From contig CAZAJM010000004.1 of the NCBI GenBank assembly GCA_964485625.1, positions 3,349 through 67,348 on the forward strand: a DNA stretch of 64,000 nucleotides, written 5' to 3'. The DNA is from an uncultured Candidatus Saccharibacteria bacterium. GTDB lineage: Bacteria; Patescibacteriota; UBA1384; JAGGWG01; CAZAJM01. The notes beneath the pieces are model-generated. The model saw only the letters and a program-made list of their open reading frames with translations, was not told the origin of the DNA and did no database searches. The translations under genes were made by a program, and so were the position numbers. Of the stretch, positions 2,408-57,000 are shown in pieces. Numbering within the stretch: position 1 is the first letter of the stretch; every line of letters begins with the position of its first letter.

Positions 2408-5083
2408 ATGGGATTATATAATCTAATTTTTGGTGATCCAAATAAGAAAGAGCTGAATAAGCTTGAGCCAATTGTTGAAAAAGTAAATAGTTTTAAAGAT
2501 AGATACTCTGATTTAAGTGACGAGGAGTTAGCTGGCCATACCAATGATTTTAAACGCCGATTAAGTGAGGGGGAGAGTTTGGACGATATCTTGCCCGAGG
2601 CTTTTGCTTTGGTTAAAGAGGCGGCTAAACGTACGGTCGGCATGGTCCATTATGATGAGCAGGTTTTAGCCGGTATTGCTATGCATCAAGGCAAGATAGT
2701 TGAACAGAAGACCGGTGAGGGTAAGACCTTGGCGGCGACCTTACCGTTGTATCTAAACGCATTGGAAGATTCGGTTCATTTAGTCACGGTTAATGATTAT
2801 CTAGCCAGAATAGGTGCTTCTTGGATGGGGCCAATTTACAAGATTTTGGGTCTCTCTGTCGGAATTATCCAAAACGAACAGAAAAGTTTCCTATATAAGC
2901 CGGAGGGTGAACAAAGCTACCAGTCAGATCAAGAAGAGGTTCAAGTTGATGTTGGGGGAATAGTTCCTTGTTCGCGGAAAGAAGTATATAAGTGTGATGT
3001 TATCTACGGTACTAACAATGAGTTTGGCTTTGATTACTTGCGGGATAATATGGCTAAATCAACTGAAGAGATTGTTCAATCAAAACCCGATCAGCCATCG
3101 AAAAAATCTCTTAACTTTGCCATTATTGATGAGGTCGATTCGATTTTAATTGATGAGGCTCGAACTCCCTTGATTATCTCTGCTCCGGATGAAAAATCCG
3201 GTTCGATGTACCAGCGTTTTGCCAGTATTGTTAAGAGATTAGATGAGGAGACAGACTACAATATAGATGAGAAGGATAGGGTGGTAAATATTACTGATAA
3301 GGGTATAGAGAAGATTGAAAAGATTCTAGATATCGATAATATTTACGATCCCAACCAGACCAAAGAGCTTGGTGGAATAGCCCTAGTTCATCATTTAGAG
3401 GAATCCCTCAAGGCCCAAGCCCTATTTAAGCGCGATCGAGATTATGTAGTTAAAGAGGGCGAGGTGGTGATAGTTGATGAGTTCACGGGCAGAATGATGC
3501 CGGGCAGACGTTACTCAGAGGGTTTACATCAAGCGATTGAGGCTAAAGAGGGAGTTGAGGTCCAAAGAGAGAGCTTAACTTTAGCCACCATCTCTTTTCA
3601 GAACCTATTCAGGCTCTACGACAAGCTATCGGGCATGACTGGTACTGCTAAAACAGAAGAGGAAGAGTTCTTCAAAATCTATGGTTTGGAAGTCTTGGTA
3701 ATACCATCTCATGAGCCACTAATTAGAAAAGATCAGTCCGATTTAGTCTACCAAAATAGGGCCGGTAAACTGAAAGCTATCGCTGCAGAGATAAAGGATA
3801 GAAATGAGAAAGGCCAGCCAATTTTGGTTGGAACTCTTTCTATTGAGAAGTCTGAAGAACTTTCGGCTCTGCTTAAAAAGAAAGGTGTCAAGCACGATAT
3901 TCTAAATGCTAAACATCACGAGAAAGAGGCTAAGATCATCGCCAATGCCGGTAAGAAGGGTGCCGTAACTATTGCTACCAATATGGCCGGTAGGGGTGTT
4001 GATATTATCTTGGGAGAGGGAGTTAAAGAGCTTGGAGGACTCTATGTTATTGGCACGGAAAGACATGATGCTAGGCGGATCGATAATCAGCTTAGAGGGC
4101 GGGCCGGTCGACAAGGAGATCCAGGCGAGTCTCGGTTTTTCTTATCTTTAGAAGATGATTTGATGAGAATATTTGGTGGCGATCGGATACAGGGTTTGAT
4201 GAGCACTCTCAATCTGCCCGAAGATCAGCCGATAGAGAACAGGATGGTCAACAATGCGATTAAGAATGCTCAAAACAAAGTTGAGGGGATTAACTTTGAT
4301 ATTAGAAAGCACTTGCTTGAGTATGACGATGTTCTAAATAAGCAGCGTGAAGTAATCTATCGGCTAAGAAGAGAACTGCTTACCGCTAGTGAAAAGAAGA
4401 AAATTGATAAAACGGTTAAATTAGTTAAGGATTATCTTGAATTTATTGTTGATATTAACTCCAAAGAGGGCAGAGATGTAGAAGTAGAGGATATTATCAG
4501 TGAGGCCAATACGGTTTTGGCTGAGAAGAAGATAGATAAGAAAGATTTGGAGGGAAAGAGTAGGGATGAGGTTAAGAAAGTTATTAACATCAGGATCGAT
4601 GAGCTCAGGCAAGCTCGAGTAGAGAGTTTTGGTGAATCTGTCTTTGGAGGCTTGTGCAAAGAGGTGAATCTAAGAACTATTGATCAGCTCTGGATAAATC
4701 ATTTGACCATGATGAGCGACTTGCGTCAAGGGATTGGTTTGAGGGGCTATGGCCAACAAGATCCTCTGGTCGAGTACAAGAAAGAGGGTAAGCATATGTT
4801 TAATCAGCTTGTTAATGAGATCGATCAGAAGGTGGCTGGACTAGTCTTTAATCTTCAAGTACAATTAGAAAGCCAGGGTGAGCAGAAAGTTGAGACAAAG
4901 GGAGCGCCGGAGGCCTTGGCGGCAGGTAATTTTAGCAATTTGAAAGAGCAGGCTCAAACAAACAGTGGTGAGAATACTATTGAGACTGTTGAGAATACCG
5001 GAGAGTATAAGGATGTTGGTAGAAACGACCCCTGTCCTTGTGGCAGTGGTAAAAAGTTTAAAAAGTGTTGTCTAAATAAGTAA
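2408..5083 (+). CDS. secA: Preprotein translocase ATPase SecA
   Basis: 891 aa. DEAD-like motor with a GEGKTLAATLP Walker A and a C-terminal zinc-binding tail CPCGSGKKFKKCC. Confidence 0.95.
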   Translation: MGLYNLIFGDPNKKELNKLEPIVEKVNSFKDRYSDLSDEELAGHTNDFKRRLSEGESLDDILPEAFALVKEAAKRTVGMVHYDEQVLAGIAMHQGKIVEQKTGEGKTLAATLPLYLNALEDSVHLVTVNDYLARIGASWMGPIYKILGLSVGIIQNEQKSFLYKPEGEQSYQSDQEEVQVDVGGIVPCSRKEVYKCDVIYGTNNEFGFDYLRDNMAKSTEEIVQSKPDQPSKKSLNFAIIDEVDSILIDEARTPLIISAPDEKSGSMYQRFASIVKRLDEETDYNIDEKDRVVNITDKGIEKIEKILDIDNIYDPNQTKELGGIALVHHLEESLKAQALFKRDRDYVVKEGEVVIVDEFTGRMMPGRRYSEGLHQAIEAKEGVEVQRESLTLATISFQNLFRLYDKLSGMTGTAKTEEEEFFKIYGLEVLVIPSHEPLIRKDQSDLVYQNRAGKLKAIAAEIKDRNEKGQPILVGTLSIEKSEELSALLKKKGVKHDILNAKHHEKEAKIIANAGKKGAVTIATNMAGRGVDIILGEGVKELGGLYVIGTERHDARRIDNQLRGRAGRQGDPGESRFFLSLEDDLMRIFGGDRIQGLMSTLNLPEDQPIENRMVNNAIKNAQNKVEGINFDIRKHLLEYDDVLNKQREVIYRLRRELLTASEKKKIDKTVKLVKDYLEFIVDINSKEGRDVEVEDIISEANTVLAEKKIDKKDLEGKSRDEVKKVINIRIDELRQARVESFGESVFGGLCKEVNLRTIDQLWINHLTMMSDLRQGIGLRGYGQQDPLVEYKKEGKHMFNQLVNEIDQKVAGLVFNLQVQLESQGEQKVETKGAPEALAAGNFSNLKEQAQTNSGENTIETVENTGEYKDVGRNDPCPCGSGKKFKKCCLNK

Positions 5084-6791: not shown

Positions 6792-8084
6792 ATGAATAAA
6801 GGAATTGGGGCTGTAGTCTTAAAATATACTCTGGTGATTATGCTCATAGCCAGCTTTGGCGGCTATCCTCTTTTGGCTAATTCTGCCAGTCTAAATAAGC
6901 AGCTGGAAGAGACTAGGGAGCAGAAAAGTGAGCTATCTAAGAAAGAAGATAAGGCAGAGAATGAAGCCCAGACTCTAGCTGCTAGAGTGGCTGAGATGGA
7001 CGAGCAAATAAAACAAGTTAGTAAAGAGATTAAAAGAACCCAAAAAGAGATAGAAAGAATAAAAGAAGAGTCTGTTAGGACTAATAAACAGATTGAGTTA
7101 AATAGAGACGAACTTATCAACCAAGAAGAACTCTTGGATCAGGCTTTACTCTACCTATATGAAGAGCAGGACCAACCCTTGCTCTACCAGCTTTTTAGTT
7201 TCGATACTTTTAGCCGTATTTTAGATAGACAGGAATATATCGGTGCAGCTGAAGAGAAAGTGAGTGATACTATCACGGAAATCAACCGAATTAAAGAGGA
7301 GCTAAATCAGAAGCAAGAATCTTTAGTTCAAGATAAGAAAGACCTAAAAGAGCTAACTATTCAACTGAAGGTCTCAAAGAAGTCTATTAAAAAAGAGCAG
7401 CAAAAGAAAGAGAAACTTCTTAAAAAGACCAAAGGCAGAGAAGATAAGTACGAGATGCTCTTAGCTGCTAAGCAGGCTGAAGAGGCGAATATTATCAAAC
7501 GTATCCAGGATCTATCTAGAAGCAAAGAGGGCAAGCATTACAATGGTAGAAAGAACAAGGACAACAAAGATAGTCAGAAGGAAGACAAAAAACAAGAGAC
7601 CAACTTTGTCTGGCCAATTAAAATAGTAGGAAATTATCAAGCTCAGGTTGGGCAGTACTATGGCATGACCGACTATGCTAAATCTGGCGCCTATAACGGA
7701 GCTCCTCACAATGGAATTGATCTTTCCTCAATCCCAAACAAGAATGGTTTTCTAGACCTAAGAGTCAGATCGGTTAGTAAGGGAGAAGTGATTATGGTAA
7801 CCCATGAATCTATCTCAGGGGGCTGGGGTAATGCGGTGGTTGTTGCTCACCCCAATGGGCTATTTAGCCTCTATGGTCATCTAAGTAGAGTAGTAGTAAA
7901 AGAAGGTCAGAAAGTAGAACAGGGCCAGATGCTTGGTATTGAGGGCAATACTGGTGCTTCTACCGGCAGACACTTGCACTTTAGCATCTATATGAAAATA
8001 ACTATCTACAAGACTCCTTGGTACTACGGCCCCGGCTATGACTATCACTGGACTCTAAACCCCCTAAACTTCATGCCTAAGTAA
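6792..8084 (+). CDS. EnvC/PcsB-like coiled-coil M23 (LytM) peptidase, paralogue A
   Basis: 430 aa with signal peptide and a long coiled-coil. The C-terminal M23 domain is in canonical order: PHNGIDLSS ... SLYGHL ... GNTGASTGRHLHFSIY. Confidence 0.8.
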   Translation: MNKGIGAVVLKYTLVIMLIASFGGYPLLANSASLNKQLEETREQKSELSKKEDKAENEAQTLAARVAEMDEQIKQVSKEIKRTQKEIERIKEESVRTNKQIELNRDELINQEELLDQALLYLYEEQDQPLLYQLFSFDTFSRILDRQEYIGAAEEKVSDTITEINRIKEELNQKQESLVQDKKDLKELTIQLKVSKKSIKKEQQKKEKLLKKTKGREDKYEMLLAAKQAEEANIIKRIQDLSRSKEGKHYNGRKNKDNKDSQKEDKKQETNFVWPIKIVGNYQAQVGQYYGMTDYAKSGAYNGAPHNGIDLSSIPNKNGFLDLRVRSVSKGEVIMVTHESISGGWGNAVVVAHPNGLFSLYGHLSRVVVKEGQKVEQGQMLGIEGNTGASTGRHLHFSIYMKITIYKTPWYYGPGYDYHWTLNPLNFMPK

Positions 8085-8095
8085 AGTATTAAGTA

Positions 8096-8183
8096 CCGGA
8101 AGCCTGCCCACCACCCACCTGCCATTGCTGTGCTCAGGCACTAGCGGGCAGGTCACCAGCTTCAGTCTTTGGCAGGCGGGTCC
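8096..8183. repeat. GC-rich hairpin element, copy A (long variant) of a three-member family
   Basis: ~88 bp at ~65% GC: cctgccattgctgtgctcaggcactagcgggcagg...ggcaggcgggtcc. It shares ccgccattgNctgag...caggcgatgNcaggcgg with copies at 26099-26139 and 31242-31282. Confidence 0.6.
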
Positions 8184-8315
8184 GACTTCGAAACACAAAT
8201 ATTGCAAATAATAATATTTAACTGGTTAAGCTTAAAATCGGAAGTCCGACTTCCGATTTTGTGTTTTTAATAATAGTTTAATTACTATAAATAGGCCAAA
8301 AAGTAGTCTTAACTA

Positions 8316-8344
8316 TTGACAAATTTAGACTATTAGTATATAAT
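8316..8344 (+). promoter_or_regulatory. Perfect-consensus promoter driving the high-GC lipoprotein gene
   Basis: TTGACA (8316-8321), 17-nt spacer, TATAAT (8339-8344). GGAGGG lies 7 nt before the ATG at 8390. Confidence 0.6.
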
Positions 8345-8389
8345 CAGGACAGTTTTGTACACCATAGTCGTGCTTTGGAGGGAACATAG

Positions 8390-8857
8390 ATGAAGAAGGT
8401 AATCGTTGTTCTGTTGTTTGTCGTTGTCGTGGTCATCGCTGGTTGTGCCGGCGATGACAACTACTACAATCTCGAGCCTGAGAATGGCACCATCGTCATC
8501 AGGCTTGCCTTCCAGTCGGACATCGACTGGCAGGACCTCGACCCCGGTCTCCGCTTCGTGGATGTTACTCGCGAATGCGGAAATTGCGTTCCCGTTCCAG
8601 TGGAGATCCGCTGGGACGAGGACTTCTACGGCGTAGTTGGCCAGATTGAGCGCCCCGCAGGCGGTCATCTGGTCAGCTGGTACTTTGAGACCAGCGACTA
8701 CGAGTACTACGCCATGGGTGAAACGTTCGTGGAAGTCCGGCCTGGGGAAGAAACAGCGGTTGAACAGACCGTTGGTTTCAACCTCTGGGACGACGAAGCT
8801 TGGGCCTATACGGCTCAGGCTCGGGAGAGAGCAGAGAGCTACGGCTCATCTCCCTGA
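8390..8857 (+). CDS. Lipoprotein of unknown function, encoded in a high-GC island (probable recent horizontal acquisition)
   Basis: 155 aa. Signal peptide with lipobox VIAGC. Codon usage is GC3-rich (atc, gtc, ctc, gac, tac, ggc), unlike all neighbours. Preceded by a consensus promoter and a GGAGGG RBS. Confidence 0.55.
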   Translation: MKKVIVVLLFVVVVVIAGCAGDDNYYNLEPENGTIVIRLAFQSDIDWQDLDPGLRFVDVTRECGNCVPVPVEIRWDEDFYGVVGQIERPAGGHLVSWYFETSDYEYYAMGETFVEVRPGEETAVEQTVGFNLWDDEAWAYTAQARERAESYGSSP

Positions 8858-9031
8858 TCTTTTTCACGACATTTTGGTGCGGCTTTGGACTGTTTGGTCC
8901 GTTTGACATCAGCCCTGAGCCGCACCTTTTCTATAATCAAAAAGTTATCCATTTTTATCCACACTTTTGGCTAGTTGACATCTGTGTGGGTGTGCTATAC
9001 TAGTTAGTGCCAGTAGGGAAAGCTGGTTAGT

Positions 9032-10228
9032 ATGAAACAAAAGGATAAACAAACCCTCTATATAAAAGGAGGGGCAAGACAATTAAAAGAGATAGCAAAG
9101 AAAGCACTTTTTGGAGTGTTGTTTTTATTTATGATCTTACTACCCGTGGTTGACGCCTCGGCTTCTCTGTTAGATGAAAAGCGGGCTGAACTAGACTCAA
9201 TTAGAGAAGATCTAGATGTCTATGAAGCAGAGGAGCAGCGATATGCCAGCGAGGCTAATACTCTAGAGAATAAGATTGCTGCTTTGAATACTGAGATTAA
9301 TAAGATTGAGTCAAAGATTGATTTAACGGAAGGTAAGATTGATGAGGCTCGGTTGAAGATAAATGAATTAAACGATCAGATTAAAGAGAAACAGAAAGAG
9401 CTTCTAGAGCAGAAAGAGATTTTAGGTCAGGCGATTAAATATATGTATGAGGAAGGAGAGACACCATTTGTGGAGACCCTATTCTCTTCAGATACTTTCT
9501 CCCAAATTTTAGATCGTACGGAATATTTAAATACTGCCCAGATGAAAGTAGAGAAGGCGATGGGAGAGATCGATGCTATTAAGCAACAGCTTAAAGATAA
9601 AAGAAAAGAACAGAGAGAGAAGAAGAGAGAGCAACAGAAGTTGCGGAAAGAACTTCAAGGTGAGAGAAATAACTTAAGTAACGCTATTAGCTCAAAGCAA
9701 TACATTTTAAATCAAACCAAGGAGAAGGAATCTAAATATCAGGCCCTAGTAGCTAAGATGCAGAGAGCAGAAGAGGCAGCTCAAGCCGAAGTTAACAGAA
9801 TTTTATCGAGCGTTGGTAGCGGCAGTTACGTCAGCCATGGCCATGTAAACAGGGGAGATATTGTTGGCTATATGGGTAGTACTGGTAATTCTACCGGTGT
9901 TCACCTCCATTTTGAGGTTAGATTAAATACTTCATTTTTCTCTCATACTAATCCTCAACCATATATTAATAATGGCACTTTCATGAGACCGGTGCCCGGG
10001 CCGATTACCCAGCCTTACGGCTATACTAGTTTTGCCCGTCAGGGTTGGTATGGTGGAGGGCCTCATATGGGCATAGATTATGGCGCATATAATTGGGGAG
10101 CTAACAACCCAATCCATGCTGCCGGTAGTGGAGAGATAATATTTAGAGGTTGGCTAGGCGGTTATGGCAATGCAGTGATGATTCTTCATCCGAGTGGTTT
10201 AGTTACTCTTTATGGGCATATGCAGTAA
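9032..10228 (+). CDS. EnvC-like coiled-coil M23 peptidase, paralogue B, with permuted order of M23 motifs
   Basis: 398 aa with signal/TM and coiled-coil. YEEGETPFVETLFSSDTFSQILDRTEYL parallels YEEQDQPLLYQLFSFDTFSRILDRQEYI in paralogue A. The M23 C-half motif GSTGNSTGVHLHFEV precedes the N-half motif PHMGIDYGA ... TLYGHM. Confidence 0.75.
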   Translation: MKQKDKQTLYIKGGARQLKEIAKKALFGVLFLFMILLPVVDASASLLDEKRAELDSIREDLDVYEAEEQRYASEANTLENKIAALNTEINKIESKIDLTEGKIDEARLKINELNDQIKEKQKELLEQKEILGQAIKYMYEEGETPFVETLFSSDTFSQILDRTEYLNTAQMKVEKAMGEIDAIKQQLKDKRKEQREKKREQQKLRKELQGERNNLSNAISSKQYILNQTKEKESKYQALVAKMQRAEEAAQAEVNRILSSVGSGSYVSHGHVNRGDIVGYMGSTGNSTGVHLHFEVRLNTSFFSHTNPQPYINNGTFMRPVPGPITQPYGYTSFARQGWYGGGPHMGIDYGAYNWGANNPIHAAGSGEIIFRGWLGGYGNAVMILHPSGLVTLYGHMQ

Positions 10229-35241: not shown

Positions 35242-36054
35242 ATTCTGATAGTTGAAGCAAACTTCAGGTTCCCACTAAGCATGCAGATTTCCCGCACTTA
35301 GCGAGTCCTTAATGCATTTTGTTTTTTAGATTAATAATTTTATCTAGTCCTTTCTCCGTGTAATGCTCCTTGTTTTCAATTAATTCCATAATTCTGGAAA
35401 ATAATTCAAAATCATTTCTTTTGGAGTTACTTCTTAAAGGATTTTCTCTAAAAAACTTGATGATTTTTTTGACGTCTTCAAGTCTTGAGGCTTGATATCG
35501 GTAGCACGTAGAATGATTTTTTCTACGATCTCTTTGAATGTATACAATGCCAAACCCTAAATATTCTTTTATCTGATAGAGCACCTGTTTGTCAAATGCT
35601 TTTAGCTTGATAACAAACATAGGCACAACTCTATTTCTGGTGCCATCGTCTTTTTTCTTTTTTACATAGACGTGAAAACACCCTTCTCCATCAGTTAAAC
35701 CGACTAAATAATCATCAGTAAGCATTAGGTTTTGTCCTTCCCTCGGCAAGTTTTGCCGGGTACTATGACTCAGCTGACTTCTTATGTTATTCATTTGCTT
35801 CTAGTATAACATAAGATCTCCCTGGATTAAATAAATTACTATTCCACACATCCCACGAATTTCTATAATATATTTTTACTTCCCTAACACACACCGGTTA
35901 GGTCGTAAAAAATGGTTTTAATGAAGTAATGATGGGCTATGTTTTGCCGTTGAGTCCTACAGTCAGTATCTCACGATAATTGACCTACTCTTGGCTATAT
36001 AAAAGGATTTTAACCTTTTAGCAAAATATCCTGCCAGGCGTCTTTATTAATTTT
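35242..36054 (-). mobile_element. 16S intervening sequence 1 at the decoding-centre helix (E. coli ~1398/1399), encoding a LAGLIDADG endonuclease
   Basis: Exon sequence ...gacgggcgg stops at 35241 and resumes tgtgtacaag at 36055. Boundaries are +/- a few nt. No terminal G is evident, so the intron class is undetermined. Confidence 0.7.
35309..35794 (-). CDS. LAGLIDADG homing endonuclease (single-motif type) inside 16S insertion 1
   Basis: 161 aa with LVGLTDGEGCFHVYV. Confidence 0.8.
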   Translation of the reverse strand: MNNIRSQLSHSTRQNLPREGQNLMLTDDYLVGLTDGEGCFHVYVKKKKDDGTRNRVVPMFVIKLKAFDKQVLYQIKEYLGFGIVYIQRDRRKNHSTCYRYQASRLEDVKKIIKFFRENPLRSNSKRNDFELFSRIMELIENKEHYTEKGLDKIINLKNKMH

Positions 36055-36381
36055 TGTGTACAAGACTCGAGAACATATTCACCGTAATGTGGCTGACTTA
36101 CGGTTACTAGCGATTCCATCTTCATGGAGTCGAATTTCAGACTCCAATCCGTACTGGGGTACATTTTAAGGGATTAGCTCCGTCTCGCGACTTGGCGAAA
36201 CCCATTGTATGTACCATTGTAGCGCGTGTGTCGCCCAAGACATAAGGGTCATGCTGATTTGGCGTCATCTCCACCTTCCTCCGTGTTGACCACGGCAGTC
36301 CTCTATGACAGATTTAACATAGAGCAGAGGTTGCGCTCGTTCAGGGACTTAACCCGACGTTTCACAACACGAGCTGACGAC

Positions 36382-37243
36382 CATGTTATTCCATTATTGC
36401 TAATGGCATGGACTATACCATCTTCCTTCATGAGGAAGTCAATGATTAATAGCAGTTACAGCCTGCTATTAGGACTACTAGACCTTTAGTAATAGTCACA
36501 AGTCTCTAAGGGCAATTTTATCTGATATTTTAATTGAGTATTTTTTCATTTCACTTATAGCTTTTTTTGCTGTATCTATTGTGAAATATAGACAATACGT
36601 TCCAGCAGATTTGTAATAATAGACTCTTGTATCAAGATTTAGCTTTTTTAACAAACCCTGATCAGTTTTAGTCTCTTGCTCATTTCCATAAACAATCCTC
36701 ATGTCATTTACCAGATTGTTACTTATTGAGCCGTCACCATCAAATCTTCCGCTGACATAAGAATATATGTCAGTCTTATTGTCTAGATTACGTATCAGTT
36801 TCTTAGATTTTTTGAAATTATATAACAGTTTTCTGTCATTTACATAAATTTGATAAGCAACCAATTTTCCGTTTTTATTTGGATAAATTTTATAGTTACG
36901 TATTTTTTCAGCTAACAGATTGTCAATATTTCTGTTTAAAGGCCGATATATTCTTAATTTTATTCTTTCGTTAGAATAATTAGCCTTTTTGAAAAAATTA
37001 TAAAACTTCCAAATGAGTTTAACGTTACAGTTGGTTAAGCCTACACTACTGGTTCTGTGGTATCCATCTGCACACCAAAGCCCAATAATATATTTATGTT
37101 TCAGTAAATCATAATTGCCCACGGAATTACCTTATTAATACTATTACTATTGTAACATGAATCGTATTAATTTGCTATAAGGTTTCTCCGTTTTGAATTG
37201 ATTTTTCCACTAGAAATTACTTTCTAGGGGGTCATTATTAAAT
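36382..37243 (-). mobile_element. 16S intervening sequence 2 (E. coli ~1052-1056 region), encoding a LAGLIDADG endonuclease
   Basis: Exon ...gagctgacgac stops at ~36381 and resumes aaccatgcaacacctgt at ~37244. The catg on both sides makes the junction ambiguous by 4 nt. Confidence 0.65.
36496..37122 (-). CDS. LAGLIDADG homing endonuclease (double-motif) inside 16S insertion 2
   Basis: 208 aa with IIGLWCADGYH and SGRFDGDGSI. Confidence 0.8.
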   Translation of the reverse strand: MGNYDLLKHKYIIGLWCADGYHRTSSVGLTNCNVKLIWKFYNFFKKANYSNERIKLRIYRPLNRNIDNLLAEKIRNYKIYPNKNGKLVAYQIYVNDRKLLYNFKKSKKLIRNLDNKTDIYSYVSGRFDGDGSISNNLVNDMRIVYGNEQETKTDQGLLKKLNLDTRVYYYKSAGTYCLYFTIDTAKKAISEMKKYSIKISDKIALRDL

Positions 37244-37520
37244 AACCATGCAACACCTGTCATCTGGCTCCCAAAGGGCACCTCCGATTTTCATCAGAGT
37301 TCCAGAGATGTCAAGTCTTGGTAAGGTTCTTCGCTTATTATCGAATTAAACCACACGCTCCACCGCTTGTGCGAGTCCCCGTCAATTCCTTTGAGTTTCA
37401 ATCTTGCGATCGTACTTCCCAGGCGGATCACTTAACGCGTTAGCTTCGAGACCAAACGGGGTCGATGCCGCCTAATCTCTAGTGATCATCGTTTACAGCT
37501 TTGACTACAGGGGTCTAAAT

Positions 37521-38535
37521 ATTTGCTCACATTGCTGTGAGGATTGGACTATATCATTTTCTAAAAATTTTCCATTTATTTTTTCTACTGCTAACAATTT
37601 TTTCAATTGTTGAATGAGAAAAATTTGTTAAATGGCTTATTCTAGAAATCCAGTTTTGTTGGCGTTTATGATCTTGATAAAGCAGTAAAATTTTATACAA
37701 CATACTTATTTGTTGTATGTTCGGCGCAATTATTGTAAAAAACCTTTTAAGGGCTTTTTCTGAATACAGGTTTAACCTGATTCTTTTATTTACAATTCCA
37801 ATTTTAGTTTCAATATTCCATTTTACTTGTAAATACTCTTTCAATAACTGAACTTCATTTTTTGAAAAACTATCTGTGCAAAAAACTCCTTTTCTAGCGT
37901 TGCCTATTATTGAACCGTCGTCTAGCCACCATACAGCTAAAGATAATTTGTCTAGATTATCTAGCCATTCTTTACTTATGGTTTTTACGTTGTTTGGATT
38001 CGTTATTTTCCAAATCTTAGTTAATTCAGGCAAAGCTCTACTTTGAAATCTTAGTTTTTTGTATCCGTAACTGCTATTGTCATTGCTTTCATCTTGTTCC
38101 CATACTGCATTGTTTGATGAAATAACCGACAATTTGGCAGCTTTCCAAAAAAAGTATTCTTGTTGTTTCTTTGAATGTCTATATGAGAATCTGGCATTTT
38201 TATACCCATTATGTATTTTTAAACTGCCATCTCCTAATAAAGATCCAAATATTATTGCTTTAGCTTGATCTGAATTAAATAATTTATCCATACTTGTTAG
38301 TATTATATCATAACAAACTATTTAATTCTCAGACACCATAGTCTCTACAGGGCCCGATATCATTTGCATAATATCAGACTCCCTCGGAATTGCCTTAAAA
38401 CACATGCTGTAGTAATCATGTTTTAAATTAAGGTTTCTCCGATAAAACTGAATGCACACTTTAGCATTGCTGCTAAAGGGGACACCTTTTGTTACTATTT
38501 ATTGAATAACGTCTATGAGACGTCAACGCGGTAAC
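37521..38535 (-). mobile_element. 16S intervening sequence 3 near the 790 loop (E. coli ~790-800), encoding a LAGLIDADG endonuclease
   Basis: Exon ...gactacaggggtctaaat stops at ~37520 and resumes gggatttatctaatccctttcgctacc at ~38536. Both flanks carry GGGTATCTAAT-like sequence, so the boundaries are +/- 15 nt. Confidence 0.6.
37554..38291 (-). CDS. LAGLIDADG homing endonuclease (double-motif) inside 16S insertion 3
   Basis: 245 aa with IIFGSLLGDGSL and WWLDDGSI. Confidence 0.8.
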   Translation of the reverse strand: MDKLFNSDQAKAIIFGSLLGDGSLKIHNGYKNARFSYRHSKKQQEYFFWKAAKLSVISSNNAVWEQDESNDNSSYGYKKLRFQSRALPELTKIWKITNPNNVKTISKEWLDNLDKLSLAVWWLDDGSIIGNARKGVFCTDSFSKNEVQLLKEYLQVKWNIETKIGIVNKRIRLNLYSEKALKRFFTIIAPNIQQISMLYKILLLYQDHKRQQNWISRISHLTNFSHSTIEKIVSSRKNKWKIFRK

Positions 38536-38955
38536 GGGATTTATCTAATCCCTTTCGCTACCAAAGCTTTCGTGCCTCAGCGTCAGAACAGACCTAGCAA
38601 ATTGCCTTCGCTTTCGGTGTTCCCTGTGATATCAACGGATTTCACCCCTACACCACAGGTTCCATTTGCCTCTGTCTGCCTCAATTTTGATAGTTTCCTT
38701 GGCGCTTTTCCTGTTAGGCAGGAAAATTTAACCAAAGACTTATCAAAACGCCTACGCACCCTTCACGCCCAATGATTCCGGATAACGCTCGCCCTCTATG
38801 TATTACCGCGACTGCTGGCACATAGTTAGTCAGGGCTGATAGCATGGTAAGTTCAAGATTTATTCCCATGCATTAGAACTTTACAATCCGAAGACCGTCT
38901 TCGTTCATGCGGTGTCGCTGCATCACCCGTTAGGGCATTGTGCAAGATTCCCCAT

Positions 38956-39001
<46 letters not shown>

Positions 39002-39605
39002 GGGGTCACGCTCTCACGTCCCCTAGCCGTCATAGCCTTGGTAAGCTTTTACCTTACCAACAAGCTGATAGCGAGCAGGTTCCTCTCAAAGCGCCGGAGC
39101 ATTTACTGCTAAGAAAATTAATTCATAGCAGACTATCAGGAATTGTTCCCAGTTTCCCGGGGTTATTCCTGTCTTTGAGGTAGATACCTACCTGTTACTC
39201 ACCCGTCCGCCGAGCAACCGAAGTTGCTCTCGACTTGCATATGTTAGGCACACCGCCAGCGTTAATCCTGAGCCGGGATCAAACTCTCCATAAAAATTGT
39301 CTTCTTTTTATCTTTATTTTTAACTCGTCTTAAAAAAGAAAGGGAAGACGAGTATTCTTGTCCGAGTCTCAGATCTTAACACTATTTGTTAAAGTACTAT
39401 TTAAAAAGCCTCTAACGAGAGGCGGTTAAAGCTACCAATATTTGTAATATTTTCTACAAATGCCTCCCAATACTTATTACTTTCTAAATTATAGTCTTAG
39501 TCTAAACAATCTAATTGCTGTTGTCAAGGGTATTGATATGAGTAGTTAATAGAACAAAAAAAGCTCGAATATGTAACAATTTATATTATATGTTAATATT
39601 ACGAG

Positions 39606-42042: not shown

Positions 42043-44507
42043 ACCAGTTTGATATTAAAAAATCAGTTAACTACTCAGCTTACCGTCTTAGGAAGTTCTG
42101 CGGTTCTTGGTTTGGTAAGGTCCTAATAATATTATTTAATCTTATCGGTCTAGTTGGTTTGGGCCTGCTAATCTATCTAGTTTTTAACTACCAGCCCCTA
42201 GTTCTTGATTGGGCTCTAAGGGCAGGAGCAGCCTACTTGGCCTTTAAGATATTTCATATTTTTTATCTAGACTATCTATTGGGGCCAAAACTTAAAGTTG
42301 ATCAGGCTTTGAAATTTGTTAACAGTGGCAAAGAGTTCAACTTGGCCGATGGGCTAGATCCCTGTCTGTTAGGAGTCTTTGAGCAAGAAAAATATCTAGC
42401 TAAAGATATTGCTTTGGGTTTAATAGAGCTCGATGAACTCAACTTTGTCCTAAACCGAGCCGGAATTAGCCGTGATGAGATCAGGAGAAGAATCGAGGAG
42501 AACATTAACGGCGAACAGGTTGGTAGTAGAGAAGAGGTGGTTATTAAGGCCTTTCAAGTAGCCAAAGCTGAGGGGCATGGTGATGTTGGCCCCGGAGACT
42601 TGTTTATTGCTCTAACTATGATCGAACCGGCCTTAAAAAGATTGGTCGATGAACTGGGCTTGAGGTTAGAAGATCTACTTAATATTGTTTACTGGTATAA
42701 CCTAGTTAAGAGGAAGAATTTTAATTTTTTAGATACTAGTGATTTTATCTTCAATGGCGGGGTAGGCAAGGACTGGATCTTTGGCTATACCAGATACCTA
42801 AATCGGTACAGTCAGGATATTACTGACTTAATTAGACAGAATAGGAATAATCTAAAATACATTGGTCATCAGTCAGTTATTGACAAAATAGAGAAATCAT
42901 TACTTAGTAGTCAAGGCAAGAATATGGTTCTGGTCGGTTCGGAGGGTTCCGGTAAGCGTACTTCCGTCTATGGCTTAGCTAGAAGAATAGCTCTGGGCCA
43001 GGCCTATGGTGCTATTAATTTAAAGCGGGTTTTAGAGTTAGATCTGGAAGCTCTACTCTCAGGAGCGACTAGTAGAGGCGAGATTGTAGGAAGGTTGAAC
43101 CGAGTTTTTGGAGAGGCAGCCAGAGTTGGTAATCTAGTTCTTCTTATTGACAATTTTGATAATATATTGTCTACTAAAGCACTTGGGCAGGTTGATGCCA
43201 GCCAGATATTAATACCATACTTAAGCTCACCTGAATTTAATGTGATTGGTACCAGTCAACCGGGTCCATATCATCGGTATGTTGAGAATAACCCGGCTCT
43301 AGATCAACGAATTGAGAAAATTGAGATAGAGGAGCCTGGGGAGCAGGAGATGATTAGAATTTTAGAGGACTCTGTACCGTTGCTTGAAGCTAGAACGGGA
43401 TGTTTTTTCCGTTATCTTGCTATTAAAGAAGTTCTGTTTTTGGCCAATAAGTATGTCTTCAATCAACCTAACCCCCAAAAATCTTTAAAACTTCTAGATA
43501 AAGTGGCTAGTGAGAGTCGGGGTCAGATTGTGACTAGAGAGAGAGTAAGAGAGATTGCCTCTAGCGCCTACAAAGTGCCAGTTGGTGAAGCGGGTCAAAG
43601 GGAGAAAAGAAGACTTCTTAATTTAGAGGAGATACTTCATAGGAGAGTGATTAACCAAAATCAGGCAATTGAAGAGATAGCCCAGGCGATGAGAAGAGCC
43701 AGAGCCGAGATTGGCCAGAAAGGTAAAAAACCGATTGGTAGCTTCTTATTTATTGGACCTACTGGAGTTGGCAAGACAGAAACAGCTAAAGCTTTGGCAT
43801 CAAGTTACTTTAGTGGAGAAGAGAATATGGCTCGGTTTGATATGGGTGAGTACCAGAACAAACAAGATCTCTATCGACTAATTGGGGATAGTCAAGAGGG
43901 AGGCAGGCCCGGAGAACTTTCCCGAAAGTTAAATGAAAGCCCCCACAGCCTGCTCCTGTTTGATGAGGTAGAGAAAGCCCATCCGGATATTTTGAATCTG
44001 TTTTTACAAATTTTAGACGAGGGTGTAGCTACTACCAGCCAGGGTAAGAAATTAGTATTTTCCAACACTATAATTATTGCCACTTCAAATGCTGGTGCCG
44101 AGTATATTAGAAAGAAGATTGAAGAAGGAGTCAACCCAGCTGAGATAAGTGATGAGATCCAAGACTACTTGATGGATAAGGGTATCTTTAAACCAGAGTT
44201 TTTAAATAGGTTTAGTAGCGTGGTCTCTTTCTCCCCATTAACTAGAGCTCAGATTGAAAAGATAGCTAAGATAAAATTAGATAAGCTAAAAAGACAGATA
44301 AAATCAGAGAAAGATATTCAGATAAACTTCGGAGAGAACGTAGCTTCGGAGATAGCCAGCCGGGGTTATAACCCGGAGATGGGTGCCAGACCGATGGAGC
44401 GAACCATAGAGAGACTAATCGAGAACTTAATTGCTAAAAAAATACTTGCCAACGATCTAAAACGAGGCGAGAGTCTAACTATTAAAGTAGAGGATTTTGA
44501 GAATTAA
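42039..44507 (+). CDS. Membrane-anchored Clp/Hsp100-family AAA+ ATPase with degenerate first nucleotide-binding domain
   Basis: Start chosen at the ATGA-coupled ATG (the ORF track starts at 41949). It has two N-terminal TM helices. D1 Walker A is GSEGSGKRT (non-canonical). D2 is canonical ([41 protein letters not shown]), followed by a C-terminal ClpB_D2-small-like region. Confidence 0.65.
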   Translation: MNQFDIKKSVNYSAYRLRKFCGSWFGKVLIILFNLIGLVGLGLLIYLVFNYQPLVLDWALRAGAAYLAFKIFHIFYLDYLLGPKLKVDQALKFVNSGKEFNLADGLDPCLLGVFEQEKYLAKDIALGLIELDELNFVLNRAGISRDEIRRRIEENINGEQVGSREEVVIKAFQVAKAEGHGDVGPGDLFIALTMIEPALKRLVDELGLRLEDLLNIVYWYNLVKRKNFNFLDTSDFIFNGGVGKDWIFGYTRYLNRYSQDITDLIRQNRNNLKYIGHQSVIDKIEKSLLSSQGKNMVLVGSEGSGKRTSVYGLARRIALGQAYGAINLKRVLELDLEALLSGATSRGEIVGRLNRVFGEAARVGNLVLLIDNFDNILSTKALGQVDASQILIPYLSSPEFNVIGTSQPGPYHRYVENNPALDQRIEKIEIEEPGEQEMIRILEDSVPLLEARTGCFFRYLAIKEVLFLANKYVFNQPNPQKSLKLLDKVASESRGQIVTRERVREIASSAYKVPVGEAGQREKRRLLNLEEILHRRVINQNQAIEEIAQAMRRARAEIGQKGKKPIGSFLFIGPTGVGKTETAKALASSYFSGEENMARFDMGEYQNKQDLYRLIGDSQEGGRPGELSRKLNESPHSLLLFDEVEKAHPDILNLFLQILDEGVATTSQGKKLVFSNTIIIATSNAGAEYIRKKIEEGVNPAEISDEIQDYLMDKGIFKPEFLNRFSSVVSFSPLTRAQIEKIAKIKLDKLKRQIKSEKDIQINFGENVASEIASRGYNPEMGARPMERTIERLIENLIAKKILANDLKRGESLTIKVEDFEN

Positions 44508-44530: not shown

Positions 44531-44557
44531 GTTTTGAGCTAAAATCGGAAGTCGGAC
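44531..44557. terminator. 27-bp palindromic hairpin; a second copy of the same palindrome is at 8234-8260
   Basis: aaaatcggaagtcggacttccgatttt just after the stop of the Clp-like gene. The other copy is aaaatcggaagtccgacttccgatttt followed by gtgttttt. Confidence 0.55.
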
Positions 44558-44584
44558 TTCCGATTTTGTTGGCTTTGGTATGGC

Positions 44585-52978: not shown

Positions 52979-55245
52979 ATATTGAGCTTTTAATAAGGAG
53001 GGGAGCCTTATTGGGCCATATTTAACTTATGGTTACTTGTAGTCCTTGACAAAGTGTTTTTAGTTGTTTAGACTTAAACCATGATAATTAGAGAACAATT
53101 TAGCAAGAGGGGGATATCGAAGTAGGCATAGATTCAATTACGGTTTCTTTTCTAGAATGCCTAAAAATTTAAGGCATTTTTTCATTGACTTGAGAATTGG
53201 CTAGTAGCTAGAAGCCCTCACTTAGAGCCTAGATTGAGCTCTATCTGAAGGTTTCTAACTGTTAGCCAGATTGGCTAGCGCAAAAATGAACTTTAACAAC
53301 TCGGTTGATAAGTAAAATAAATAGATAAAAATAGAAAATATTTCTATTTGCAATTTCTCGATTATGAAGTAGTTACTTTTGTAAATATATATGCGTATGG
53401 TGGATGTCTTGGTAGAAAGAGCCTATGAAGGACGTGGCAGGCTGCGATAAGCCTCGGTGAGTCGCCAAACAGACTTTGACCCGAGGATTTCCGAATGAGT
53501 TAACTCAGCTTGGTGAAAGCCAAGTTAATCCCGCTTTTTGTGGGATAGGGCACCCGTTGAATTGAAACATCTTAGTAAACGGAGGAAGAGAAAATAATAA
53601 TGATTTCCCTAGTAGTGGCGAGCGAACGGGAAACAGTCTAAACTTCTCGATTTATCGAGAAGGGTTGTGGGGTTTGCAATGTTTAGATCTATCTGTTAGT
53701 TGAAGGTCCCTGGAAAGGGCCGCCAAAGAGGGTAATAGCCCCGTAAACGAAAATAGAAAGATCTAATAGCATTTTCCCCAAGTACCATCGGACACGTGAA
53801 ACCCGGTGGGAATCTAGCTGGGACAACAGCTAAGACTAAATACTCTTTATGCCGATAGTGAACTAGTACCGTGAGGAAAAGATGAAAAGAACCCCTGTTA
53901 GGGGAGTGAAATAGAACCTGAAGCCATATGCTTACAATGAGGTGAAGTCGCGCTTTTGCGTGGTGACACCGTGCTTTTTGCAGAACGAGCCAACGAGTTA
54001 GCTGTATACGGCAAGCTTAATCCCGCTAAGCGGGAGAAGGCGTAGCGAAAGCGAGTTTTAACTAGCGTTTAGTCGTATGCACTAGACCCGAAACCAGGCG
54101 ATCTATCTATGGCCAGGGTGAACCCCGCCGAAAGGCGTGGGGGAGGCCCGAACACGTGAGAGCTGCAAATCTCTGTGATGAGCTGTGGATAGCGGTAAAA
54201 TGCCAATCGAGCCTGGCAATAGCTGGTTCTCTTCGAAATATATTTAGGTATAGCCTTTGTTAATTGCTAAGAAGAGGTAAGGCTCTGGATCGGTCTAGGT
54301 TCCTTTGTGAACCTAAACCGAATCAAACCTCAAATTCTTCTTAGTTTAGACAAAGAGTCAGAACGCGGGGGCTAAGCTTCGCGTTCGAAAGGGAAACAAC
54401 CCAGATCGTCATCTAAGGTCCCCAAATAAGATCTAAGTGGTAAAGGAAGTAGTTCGCCGAAGACAGGCAGGAGGTTAGCCTAGAGGTCGCAATCCTTTAA
54501 AGAGTGTGTAACAACTCACTGCCCAATCCGGTATGGATTGGCGGGCTGCGCCTAAAATGTAACGGGGCTAAGATCTTTACCGAAGATGCGACGTCCGGTT
54601 TTTCGGACGGGTAGAAGAGCGTTCTCATCGCACTGAAGCTCAGACTGTGAGGTCGGGTGGAGCGTTGAGAAGTGAGAATGTTGGCATGAGTAACGAATTA
54701 ATTCGATGAGAAATCGGATCACCCAATATCTAAGGTTTCCTCCGCAATGCTAATCAGCGGAGGGTTAGTCGGTCCTAAGCCCAACCCCGCCTGTGGCGGG
54801 GTCAAGCGATGGGCATGTGGTTAATATTCCACAACTATCACTTGTTCGCTACTATTGCTATAGATGACTTCCGCCATTTGGCGGAACTAGAAAAATTTAT
54901 AGCAAGAGAACAAGCGGTATCCGTACCGCAAACCGACGCAGGTAGATGGGTCGAGAAGACCAAGGTGATCGGAAGAACCCTCTCTAAGGAACTCGGCAAA
55001 AAAGCGTTCGTAACTTAGGGATAAGGACTGCCACGTAAAATTTTTCTTCGGAAAAACTAACGTGGCCGCAGCGAATGTGCCCGAGCGACTGTTTACCAAA
55101 AACACAGGTCTCTGCGAACTCGCAAGAGTATGTATAGAGACTGACCCCTGCCCAATGCCAGTGTGTTACGGGGATATCGTCACTTCGGTGACGGTTGAAC
55201 CTAAGCCCTGGTGAATGGCGGCGATAACTATAATCGTCCTAAGGT

Positions 55246-55843
55246 GGAATAGCTGCCTTAGTAAAATCTAGCTATATGCTGGAACATCTGAGTATAATTT
55301 GGTACTATGGTAGTATGTATCCTTAGATATGTACTATGTTAAGTAAAAAATCAAATTTGCAGGCAACCAGCAGGAAAGACCAATCTTTTGCCTGGTGGCT
55401 AGTAGGATTTACTGACGGAGAAGGATGCTTCTCTGTTAGTAAGTTTAGAAATCCTACAACAAGATCTGGATGGCAAGTATTTCCAGAGTTTGTAGTTACC
55501 CAAGGTGAGAGCAGCAAGCAATCACTTGATGAAATTAAGGATTTCTTCAAGTGTGGAGGTGTATATATTAACCGTAGAAATGATAATCACAAAGAAGATC
55601 TATATCGGTACTGTGTAAGATCGGTTGATGATCTAATCAATGTGATTATTCCATTTTTTGAAAAGCACCCGCTTAAGACTGCTAAACAAAAATCTTTTAT
55701 GGATTTCAAGAAAAAAGTCGAAGCTATAAAAGAAAAACGAAGTAAAAGATAGGAATCCTCAGAGACTATACGCTAGAGTCTGATATTCTATCAGATAAGA
55801 TATAGTCCGAACTTTAGTGCGAGCTAAAGACTAACAAATAATG
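55246..55843 (+). mobile_element. Group I intron at the E. coli L1931-equivalent site, encoding a LAGLIDADG endonuclease
   Basis: 5' exon ends CCTAAGGT (U at -1) and the intron ends in G before AGCGAAATTCC. An S-like element agatatagtccgaac lies ~35 nt before the 3' splice site. Confidence 0.75.
55336..55752 (+). CDS. LAGLIDADG homing endonuclease (single-motif) in 23S intron 1
   Basis: 138 aa with LVGFTDGEGCFSVS. Confidence 0.8.
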   Translation: MLSKKSNLQATSRKDQSFAWWLVGFTDGEGCFSVSKFRNPTTRSGWQVFPEFVVTQGESSKQSLDEIKDFFKCGGVYINRRNDNHKEDLYRYCVRSVDDLINVIIPFFEKHPLKTAKQKSFMDFKKKVEAIKEKRSKR

Positions 55844-55863
55844 AGCGAAATTCCTTGTCAGGT

Positions 55864-56121
55864 AAAATGTCAGAATTTGCCTGAGCAGTGTCGTGAGATG
55901 CTGTTAGTAATCCGGCTAATAACGAGGGAATCCCACAATTGTGGGACAACCCCGTGGGAAGTCTAGACCACTAGTTAGTGGATGGACCCCGTAACGACTG
56001 AGTCGAAAGACGAGATCTAAGACTTAAAGCTTAGATAATACGCCGGCACTCCAATTTATATTTTGGAGTTGAAGAGATAGTCTAATTCTAGTTGAATATA
56101 AAAACTAGTTCTAATTAAATG
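55864..56121 (+). mobile_element. ORF-less group I intron at the L1951-equivalent site
   Basis: Exon GTCAGGT ends in T, the intron ends ...aattaaatG, and the exon resumes AAGTTCTGACC. Internal core ccgtgggaagtc...ggatggaccccgtaacgactgagtcgaaaga and S-like gagatagtctaattc. Confidence 0.7.
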
Positions 56122-56677
56122 AAGTTCTGACCTGCACGAAAGGGGTAACGGTTTGGGCTCTGTCTCGGAGAGGGATCCGGTGAAATTGCAATGTGGGTGA
56201 AAATGCCCACTACTTACGGCAGGACGGAAAGACCCCGTGAAGCTTTACTACAGGCTGGTATTGGATTGAGGGGGCTTTTGTCGAGAATAGGTGGGAGACT
56301 TTGAAGTTAGGACGCCAGTCCTAATGGAGTCGCCAGTGGAATACCACCCTTAAGACCTTTTAATTCTAACCTTGGTTCGTTTCATAGATTGACTGAGGAA
56401 CAGTGCTTGCTGGGTAGTTTATCTGGGGCGGATGCCTCCTAAATAGTAACGGAGGCGTGCTAAGGTTCTCTAGTCCAGTATGGAAATCTGGATGATAGTG
56501 CAAAAGCATAAGAGAGCCTCGACTGCAAGACTTACAAGTCGAGCAGGTGCGAAAGCAGGCTTTAGTGATCCGACGTTTCCCTTTGTACAGGGGCGAAGCT
56601 CAACGGATAAAAGCTACTCCGGGGATAACAGGTTAATCGGGCCCAAGAGCTCATATCGACGGCCCGGTTTGACACCT

Positions 56678-57000
56678 CAACATAGTCGACGATCCACGCA
56701 AGTGGATTATGGGGTGTAACGTTAAGCAATTAGCGTTTAGTAATTCGATCAAAACGGTGGAACCTTCTTTATGTAATCTATATTGTATTGTATAATATAG
56801 GTGTAAATAGAAAGGCAATACCGTGGGAGATCCAGAAAATGGATAACCCGTAGAGACTTAATTGTAATTAAATACAATTAGATTCAGTGTATTTTTGCTG
56901 GATAATACGTCGAACTCTCCGATTTTATCGGAGATGAAGGTATAGTCCAAACCTATTGGAAACATTAGGTAGTAACATTAGAAAATGTTATGTAAATTTG
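56678..57000 (+). mobile_element. ORF-less group I intron at the L2500-equivalent site (peptidyl-transferase loop)
   Basis: Exon ...GACACCT ends in T, the intron ends ...aaatttG, and the exon resumes CGATGTCGGCTC. It carries ccgtgggagatcc...ggataacccgtagagactt and S-like gaaggtatagtccaaacc. Confidence 0.7.

Follow-up and report, generated by a model that had tools for sequence, protein, structure and literature searches.

How does a GC-rich gene come to stand in the cell-division cluster of an AT-rich bacterium, and what does it encode? The question is raised by a stretch of 64,000 nucleotides (hereafter the window, to whose first letter all coordinates refer) from an uncultured Candidatus Saccharibacteria bacterium (contig CAZAJM010000004.1, positions 3,349 to 67,348), in which an open reading frame (ORF) of 155 codons lies between two genes for M23-type peptidases, here called M23a and M23b, downstream of ftsE and ftsX. 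As a gene it is of an ordinary kind, an orphan accessory gene of atypical composition in a variable intergenic slot. Its most unusual property, absent from the original prediction made for this locus, is a ribozyme-level self-complementarity of the coding sequence. On balance we think it probable that the ORF encodes a real exported β-sandwich protein, probably lipid-anchored, and that selection acts to an unusual degree on the structure of its mRNA. The parts of the cassette, all on the plus strand, are as follows.

8316 to 8344, plus strand: sigma-70-type promoter, TTGACA, 17 nt, TATAAT, matching the consensus at 12 of 12 positions
8377 to 8382, plus strand: Shine-Dalgarno sequence GGAGGG, 7 nt ahead of the ATG
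8390 to 8857, plus strand: ORF of 155 codons whose translation is an orphan putative lipoprotein (signal peptide 1-18, lipobox I16-A-G-C19)
8422 to 8926, plus strand: compositional island and hyper-structured segment, delimited as the maximum-likelihood GC segment (57.4% versus 40.1% in the flanks)
8876 to 8932, plus strand: terminator-like hairpin (arms 8876-8892 and 8910-8926, then TTTTCT), the 3' end of the cassette

The boundaries of the island are sharp. GC content in 200-nt windows rises from 0.30 (8200-8399) to 0.55-0.61 (8400-8899) and falls to 0.39 thereafter, and this is the only 1-kb bin outside the rRNA genes that exceeds 0.45 across 64 kb. Within the ORF, the GC content at the first, second and third codon positions is 0.63, 0.39 and 0.67, respectively. 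Third-position GC (GC3) of 48 ORFs in the window averages 0.356 with a standard deviation of 0.065, and the runner-up to the 155-codon ORF reaches 0.43. When the same protein was back-translated with host codons, GC3 was 0.367±0.036 and never exceeded 0.477 in 2000 draws, far below the observed 0.677; thus, amino-acid composition is not the cause of the anomaly. An index resembling the codon adaptation index is 0.479 for the ORF and 0.714±0.024 for host genes (minimum 0.642). The recomputed windowed GC and codon adaptation are therefore not uniform, in agreement with the original prediction of a GC3-dominated ORF with a sharp boundary, and the three ORFs that it listed in alternative frames do exist. 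Such GC3-rich codon usage indicates coding DNA that has not been under the mutational regime of this genome for long.

The island is also exceptionally structured. The minimum free energy (MFE) of the RNA from 8420-8930 is -254 kcal/mol, compared with -188±6.9 for dinucleotide shuffles (z = -9.6). A repeat run gave z = -10.6 for the plus strand and -8.1 for the minus strand, the plus strand being 35 kcal/mol more stable, and the island folded as single-stranded DNA has z = -7.9. Among the controls, 25 host coding windows of 511 nt range from -2.0 to +2.0 and four rRNA windows from -3.3 to -4.5. Fifty-five windows from genomes of 50-76% GC have a mean z of -0.44±1.43 (minimum -4.7), so high GC alone is not the cause of the folding excess. 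The positive control was RNase P RNA, with z = -10.6, and the folding of the cassette is in this ribozyme range. The control comes from one of the related loci that we compared, which are numbered here with the prefix L: an island of high GC without ORFs in a Parcubacteria metagenome-assembled genome (MAG; L038:2166-2646, minus strand) is RNase P RNA according to Rfam (158 bits). The predicted fold of the cassette transcript is multibranched: about 66% of the nucleotides are paired, about ten helices span 7-12 bp, and G-U pairs make up 23 of the 197. The lipobox codons form a 12-bp hairpin, and codons 6-8 pair with part of the Shine-Dalgarno sequence (MFE helices 8378-8379/8414-8415 and 8381-8386/8407-8412).

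We compared the excess with progressively stricter nulls. Shuffling in blocks of 30 nt gave z = -8.0 (about -8 for blocks of 30-90 nt) and permutation of codon order gave z = -8.9. With the protein held fixed, synonymous permutation gave a null of -182±7.3 compared with -227 for the native sequence (z = -6.2), and z remained between -3.1 and -4.9 when synonymous codons were permuted within blocks of 20-52 codons. Local GC, codon periodicity, amino-acid order and high GC were each considered as the source of an artefact, and none of the nulls tested accounts for the excess. Because it survives permutation that preserves the protein, the synonymous sites themselves are arranged to pair, and we infer selection at the RNA level on the coding sequence. 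The likeliest purpose of the structure would be an unusually stable mRNA with gated translation; gating is proposed because part of the Shine-Dalgarno sequence is masked in the predicted fold. The idea that structure shields a C-rich foreign transcript from Rho was set aside, since G outnumbers C in the sense strand, which thus does not resemble a loading site for Rho. Rfam has no match at gathering score in the cassette, and at E ≤ 10 only chance-level matches appear.

Despite this structure, the 155-codon ORF is most likely a real protein-coding gene. The only stop codon in its frame is its own, whereas the other five frames contain 3-9 stops, and the composition by codon position is of the coding type (G at 0.47 in first positions, A and T in second positions, C at 0.43 in third positions). 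A GC3-rich and hyper-structured ORF in L040 contains a genuine PKD domain (8e-12), which shows that one gene can be both coding and hyper-structured.

The predicted product carries the signals of an exported lipoprotein. Its N-terminus consists of MKK, a 13-residue hydrophobic core (VIVVLLFVVVVVI) and IAGC; against the usual description of a lipobox protein (charged n-region, h-region of 7-22 residues, and [LVI][ASTVI][GAS]C within about the first 35 residues), the sequence I16-A17-G18-C19 is the sole match to the pattern among 42 ORFs of the window. The mature part has a pI of 4.05, 28 D+E residues versus eight K+R, and 14.6% aromatic residues, so the earlier description of an acidic, aromatic-rich protein with an IAGC lipobox is borne out. 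After Sec export the product would probably be lipid-anchored at Cys19 on the outward-facing side of the membrane, displaying a small, acidic, Trp/Tyr-rich domain predicted to be a β-sandwich. This fold comes from a single-sequence AlphaFold2 model with seven β-strands and a C-terminal helix, for which the predicted local distance difference test (pLDDT) is 65.7 and the predicted template modelling score (pTM) is 0.56; a 111-residue antisense ORF used as a control reached 36.2 and 0.20. The top Foldseek matches in the PDB are 1cqy and 1b90 (CBM20, a carbohydrate-binding module family) and 2j72 and 2j71 (CBM41), with E-values of 5e-4 to 1e-3 on a model of pLDDT 66. In superpositions with these structures, template modelling (TM) scores are 0.36-0.42 normalized to the query and 0.5-0.6 normalized to the target, with a root-mean-square deviation of about 4.8 Å and 10-18% identity; pilin, CopC and Ig-like folds score almost equally well. 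The resemblance modelled here is at the level of fold class only. From the model, our best guess at a function is binding at the cell surface, possibly to glycans. A levivirus-coat-like fold, suggested by the seven strands and C-terminal helix, is not found among the PDB matches listed.

At the sequence level, the protein is an orphan. A word-indexed search matched nothing but the protein's own entries in NCBI and two Logan assemblies. We also ran phmmer exhaustively on 1.84 billion representatives, which stand for about 15 billion proteins; this returned the protein itself and three further matches with E-values of 1e-6 to 5e-4 (cohesin-like, HYR_4C and one other), which we treat as spurious: they are mutually unrelated repeat proteins with scores summed over three to seven weak repeats. 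Searches of Pfam, NCBIfam, PHROGs, PADLOC and PDB sequences gave matches at the signal-peptide or chance level and nothing else. In Pfam, including its CBM models, there is a single signal-peptide-level match (E 0.31), while matches in NCBIfam and PHROGs are limited to the signal region. The best PADLOC hit is BilD (E 0.022, 11.5 bits, 37 residues), and no defence model matches. At the DNA level, blastn matched the cassette to nothing in the phage and plasmid collections, and a scan of viral contigs was likewise negative.

Comparison with relatives shows that the gene was added to an otherwise conserved arrangement. The window is that of an AT-rich bacterium (~39% GC) of the Patescibacteria, or Candidate Phyla Radiation (CPR), type; in a search of 185,579 species-representative genomes, the top matches of its FtsX come from Patescibacteria MAGs and have at most 42% identity. 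The gene order is secA (2408-5083), ftsE, ftsX, M23a, the 155-codon ORF, M23b and a gene of the phosphodiesterase family. The features that flank the cassette are the following.

6792 to 8084, plus strand: M23a, the upstream neighbour, with a signal peptide, a coiled coil and a canonical M23 domain (EnvC/PcsB-like architecture)
8085 to 8233, no strand: non-coding spacer absent in relatives, with stops in all six frames
8234 to 8260, plus strand: palindromic hairpin of 27 nt (two 13-nt arms with a single base between them), then a T-rich run, found by a terminator scan
8945 to 9001, plus strand: native conserved region upstream of M23b, the right-hand limit of the insert, with TTATCCATT, TTATCCACA, then TTGACA, 15 nt, (TGc)TATACT
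9032 to 10228, plus strand: M23b, the downstream neighbour, with a coiled coil and a circularly permuted M23 domain

Orthologues of M23a that are 49-71% identical (71%, 65%, 54%, 52% and 49%) immediately follow ftsX in relatives, and in the two closest lineages FtsE is 92-94%, FtsX 86-92% and M23a 65-71% identical to the window proteins. The gap between M23a and M23b is 141 nt in L083-86, 78 nt in L087-88 and 102 nt in L092, compared with 947 nt in the window. As the two genes are adjacent in the closest relatives, the cassette was gained in this lineage; relatives that lack the insert, for which the original prediction had proposed to look, are thus found in L083-L088 and L092. No relative of the 155-residue protein is encoded in about 90 related loci searched with tblastn and nhmmer, and the M23b promoter region is conserved as far as the right edge of the insert. 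An unrelated orphan ORF of 93 codons with its own promoter-like sequence lies exactly in the M23a-M23b spacer of a relative with 52% identity (L091:5426-5707). It has a GC content of 0.45 in a locus of 0.34 and a folding z of -2.9, and its product looks cytoplasmic, having no signal peptide and no match in Pfam or PADLOC. With a different orphan in the same place, an accessory cargo slot is a fair description, and the spacer appears, from these sequences, to be a recurrent insertion point. The proposal of an accessory cargo gene is supported by this finding and by the self-contained organization of the cassette.

Some specific kinds of mobile or variable element were considered. A repeat search at the cassette found no flanking direct repeats, only a 10-nt repeat within the terminator region. 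The ORF, the promoter segment and the upstream spacer each occur just once in 64 kb, the sole recurring piece being the 27-nt palindrome. The ORF does not look like the target of a diversity-generating retroelement, as no second copy of any part longer than 12 nt exists in 64 kb and no reverse transcriptase was noticed. Nor does the cassette look like that of an integron, as no integrase was noticed and the 3' hairpin shows no attC core sites by eye. The checks for reverse transcriptase and integrase used the list of window ORFs, with Pfam run for some of them.

The cassette (approximately 8262-8940) would work as a self-contained unit with a sigma-70 promoter, a Shine-Dalgarno sequence, the ORF and an intrinsic terminator, and together with the spacer 8085-8233 it fills the gap between the two FtsEX-associated peptidase genes. 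The textbook TTGACA-17-TATAAT promoter and GGAGGG of the original prediction are indeed present, but the promoter is neither special nor a mark of foreign DNA. Consensus promoters are the normal style of this genome: nine sites match at 11 or more of 12 positions (two at 12/12 and seven at 11/12), compared with 3.2±1.6 in mononucleotide shuffles, and the other 12/12 site lies at 2282, upstream of secA. Near-perfect promoters (11-12/12, mostly with a 17-nt spacer) are located at 2282, 6753, 21753, 23356 and 52145 on the plus strand and at 542 on the minus strand, ahead of secA, M23a and other genes. With a GC content of 0.29 in its surroundings (8191-8389), the promoter segment looks native. 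The hairpin at the other end of the cassette, for which MFE folding gives the helix 8876-8885/8917-8926, was also detected as an inverted repeat.

Upstream of the promoter, the spacer 8085-8233 has no nhmmer match in 88 related loci, and its part 8097-8190 has a GC content of 0.65. This GC-rich stretch may be left over from foreign DNA, or it may be a variable element. A structured RNA at 8092-8200 was ruled out (z = -1.4 and -1.6); folding of 8085-8270 gives z = -3.75, mainly from the terminator. The palindromic hairpin at 8234-8260 is the probable terminator of M23a and a native element. The element, AAAATCGGAAGTC-C/G-GACTTCCGATTTT, stands behind two unrelated genes that are 36 kb from each other: a second copy that differs in one central base lies at 44541-44567, after a gene ending at 44507. 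Such a terminator may be shared between genes or mobile.

The right-hand side of the cassette is joined to its neighbours in independent data. In Logan assemblies SRR15425350 and SRR15425351, the sequence from 8234 onward is 100% identical to the window, through the ORF, M23b and the phosphodiesterase gene. Both contigs that carry the ORF begin exactly at 8234, at the palindrome that occurs twice in the window, and the Logan contig with M23a stops at 8147, 63 nt into the GC-rich spacer.

Where did the GC-richness come from? Horizontal acquisition is the most likely route: the coding DNA would have come from an unsampled source richer in GC and been placed under, or arrived with, a promoter of the host type. 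GC3 at unpaired third positions is 0.53, compared with 0.57 in the synonymous-permutation null and a host average of 0.36. This rules out that GC-richness is restricted to stems and favours an origin at higher GC. Of the recent acquisition from a high-GC donor in the original prediction, the atypical composition and the gain in this lineage are supported; the high-GC donor is a deduction from composition, and no donor emerged from about 15 billion proteins or from the phage, plasmid and viral sets.

The gene has possible counterparts in other CPR genomes. Many CPR loci contain GC-rich islands, often between secA and ftsE, that mostly carry ORFs for secreted or lipoprotein-like products without a known family. 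We surveyed 645 ORFs from about 55 loci and tested 128 of them, 18 with a GC3 excess of at least 0.15 and 110 ordinary ones. The mean synonymous-permutation z is -3.1 in the first group (28% at or below -4) and -0.68 in the second (2% at or below -4; Mann-Whitney p = 2e-7), and the 155-codon ORF ranks second in this comparison. Eight of the ten GC3-rich outlier ORFs that we examined have no Pfam family. Other outliers, with z from -4 to -7, are L011:6101-6868, L022:5539-6519, L040:4535-6082, L040:15134-15964 (minus strand), L015:4682-6019, L047:2694-3590 and L006:2415-3185. Housekeeping genes of AT-rich and high-GC genomes show no such excess over protein-preserving permutations. The association of GC3 excess with structure may stem from a shared type of donor, from selection for mRNAs that are stable or gated, or from a mutational process. 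A bolder proposal, which we consider rather unlikely but worth stating, is that the gene belongs to an undescribed class of accessory surface-protein genes of CPR/Patescibacteria that are GC3-rich, mostly family-less and paired at ribozyme level down to synonymous sites. If real, such a class could consist of genes with dual RNA and protein function, of mRNAs with extreme stability or gating given minimal regulatory machinery, or of products of hairpin-generating mutation (template switching), and the GC islands of AT-rich CPR genomes would owe as much to nucleic-acid structure as to a foreign origin.

Several alternatives compete with a transferred, structured, protein-coding gene. The least probable is an assembly chimera, in which a fragment from an organism of higher GC was misjoined into the contig. 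The abrupt change of composition and the Logan breaks at 8234 and 8147 are what a chimera would produce, but two Logan assemblies join the ORF to M23b and the phosphodiesterase gene with full identity, the M23a contig already covers the first 63 nt of the GC-rich spacer, a palindrome present twice lies at the 8234 break, and the promoter, the terminator and the conserved region upstream of M23b join seamlessly. A more serious contender, though still unlikely, is that the island chiefly specifies a structured non-coding RNA, transcribed from its own promoter and ended by its own terminator, the ORF being fortuitous or vestigial. Its folding energy (z from -9.6 to -10.6) equals that of RNase P RNA and lies far beyond any coding control; the plus strand is the more stable one and G-U pairs are present (23/197), islands of high GC in AT-rich genomes are typically structured RNAs, as the rRNA genes are here, the unit has a strong promoter and a terminator of its own, and no true protein homologue was found. 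Moreover, an open run of at least 155 codons appears in 1.3% of shuffles that preserve structure and composition. This explanation is opposed by the failure of Rfam to supply a family even at E ≤ 10, by a start codon 7 nt after GGAGGG that opens a canonical signal peptide with a lipobox, by freedom from stops in the ORF frame only, by coding-type positional composition and by AlphaFold2, which folds the sense product and not the antisense one.

If the gene is accepted as coding, its origin and role can also be read differently. It may have evolved in place or within CPR pools with no horizontal transfer, its GC content arising from selection or a mutational process (for example, template switching) for pairing. 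We regard this as improbable, if slightly less so than the RNA gene. It would also cover the other GC3-rich, hyper-structured genes for secreted proteins in CPR (p = 2e-7 relative to ordinary ORFs), eight of ten without a Pfam family and most secreted or lipoprotein-like, and it sits well with a host-like promoter and 5' region and with the lack of a donor. However, unpaired GC3 of 0.53 means that pairing alone is not enough to explain the composition, the gene is wholly missing in close relatives, and de novo birth from DNA of 39% GC would not yield 57% GC. As for role, the original prediction offered an immunity factor or inhibitor acting on the M23 peptidases, to which an adaptor for them or for FtsEX may be added. 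Searches of Pfam, NCBIfam, PHROGs, PADLOC and PDB sequences lend no support to it, and we consider any such role quite improbable. Its only support is the position between M23a and M23b downstream of ftsEX, and nothing else links the protein to the M23 enzymes, although its predicted extracytoplasmic location is the compartment of the M23 domains and a CBM-like β-sandwich, if correctly modelled, could bind cell-wall glycan. On the other hand, the gene is absent in every relative that keeps FtsEX, M23a and M23b, so the module does not need it; the unrelated ORF of L091 in the same slot suggests a permissive insertion site rather than a functional linkage, the cassette has its own promoter and terminator, and the protein resembles no described family.

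Our preferred reading, an acquired gene for an exported and probably lipid-anchored protein with a structured mRNA, has to be held against a number of observations. A z of about -10 is in the range of bona fide structured RNAs and not of mRNAs, and the 1.3% of shuffles with an equally long open run makes ORF length weak evidence of coding. The searches gave no true homologue, and hence neither a donor nor any dN/dS or covariation to draw on. No mobility signature (integrase or transposase, tRNA or att site, flanking direct repeats or target duplication) was found around the cassette. Regarding lipidation, no Lgt, LspA or other lipobox protein was noticed in the 64-kb window, and the fold is drawn from a model of moderate confidence whose matches are generic β-sandwiches. 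Finally, 8148-8233 is bridged by the NCBI contig alone, so the left junction rests on that assembly, and population heterogeneity at this junction is possible.

The surroundings of the gene are those that the original prediction described, between two EnvC-like M23 paralogues downstream of ftsEX; both paralogues have coiled coils, and they are about 30% identical to each other. M23a matches Pfam Peptidase_M23 at 1.7e-22 and has the HxxxD and HxH motifs. M23b has two M23 stretches in Pfam, the better one covering residues 344-398, which correspond to profile positions 2-53 of 96 and reach the end of the ORF. In BLASTP, the two proteins align in a non-colinear manner, with residues 375-406 of M23a paired with residues 272-303 of M23b. 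In the domain order of M23b, the HxH half (residues ~268-303, GVHLHFEV) precedes the HxxxD half (~340-398, PHMGIDYG), and the protein ends in LYGHMQ. Its homologues (L083:3553-4737, L087:4081-5271, L007:10979-12106 and L010:10926-12044), some of them from Saccharibacteria MAGs, are colinear with it, while canonical M23 proteins give two out-of-order alignments. In a relative with 49% identity, a coiled-coil CHAP protein (L089:7471-8571) follows M23a where M23b would be expected; judged by its sequence, this is a swap of the hydrolase domain on the same coiled-coil scaffold.

The conserved block to the right of the insert begins at about 8945 and reads, across five lineages, TTATCC(A/C)nTTTTATCCACA, TTGAC(A/T), 15 nt, (TGn)TATAAT/TATACT, AGTTAGTGCCAG. 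The element TTATCCACA is a perfect match to the DnaA-box consensus, and this element, TTGAC and the -10 element are invariant in the window and the four relatives aligned. The motif abuts the -35 element of the M23b promoter, with equivalents at L083:3477-3528, L087:4017-4056 and L091:5737-5783, and a second near-copy precedes it in the window and in L083. The arrangement suggests that DnaA or another regulator that binds the motif may control the M23b gene. Elsewhere in the window, insertions interrupt both the 16S and the 23S gene: large ones divide the 16S gene (35309-39294, minus strand), and the 23S gene (53377-56723, plus strand) has a length of 3.3 kb. ORFs for LAGLIDADG endonucleases lie in or beside the rRNA genes (35309-35794, 36496-37122, 37554-38291 and 55336-55752), and the 16S, 23S and 5S genes are unlinked, with no single operon.

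The locus indicates that the ftsEX-M23 division cluster of minimal bacteria tolerates cargo just upstream of a conserved promoter with a DnaA-box-like motif. If our reading of the coding sequence is true, GC islands in the AT-rich genomes of episymbionts cannot simply be read as donor signatures, and the cassette is a concrete case of strong RNA-level selection on a whole bacterial coding sequence. This would have a bearing on mRNA stability and translation control in reduced genomes, and on the classification of such loci by gene finders and screens for non-coding RNA.

Among known systems, the neighbourhood is closest to the modules that combine FtsEX with coiled-coil hydrolases or activators (EnvC, PcsB, CwlO and RipC): ftsE, ftsX and the coiled-coil M23 genes are consecutive and conserved across CPR relatives. 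It differs in that M23b is circularly permuted and the 155-codon gene is not a conserved member of the module. Escherichia coli EnvC is not known to have the HxxxD and HxH metal-binding motifs, whereas M23a keeps both. The encoded protein resembles bacterial lipoproteins processed by signal peptidase II in its charged n-region, hydrophobic core and lipobox, but its mature domain fits no lipoprotein family. With CBM20 and CBM41 its predicted domain would share seven β-strands, richness in aromatic residues and an extracytoplasmic location, and it differs from them by the lack of a Pfam CBM match and by low identity and query TM scores. The cassette shares with horizontally acquired islets and ORFans the anomalies of GC, GC3 and codon usage, absence in close relatives and the form of a single self-contained gene in a variable spacer. 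Foreign DNA is more commonly discussed as AT-rich; here the insert is GC-rich in an AT-rich host, its coding sequence is hyper-structured, and neither a donor or homologue nor an integrase, tRNA, att site or direct repeats accompany it.

With respect to RNA structure, highly structured coding RNAs include the dual-function RNAIII of Staphylococcus aureus, and ordered RNA structure on a genome scale is a property of RNA viruses and viroid-like agents. The cassette differs from the latter in being chromosomal DNA and not an RNA replicon, with a fold that is multibranched and not rod-like. It is like the dual-function RNAs in its length of ~0.5-0.6 kb, its own promoter and terminator, its many stable stem-loops and the presence of an ORF. 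Unlike in those RNAs, the ORF is not a minor portion of the transcript but takes up about 80% of it, and no regulatory target, homologue or covariation is at hand for the cassette. A further likeness to structured coding RNAs is a folding excess that reaches the synonymous sites.

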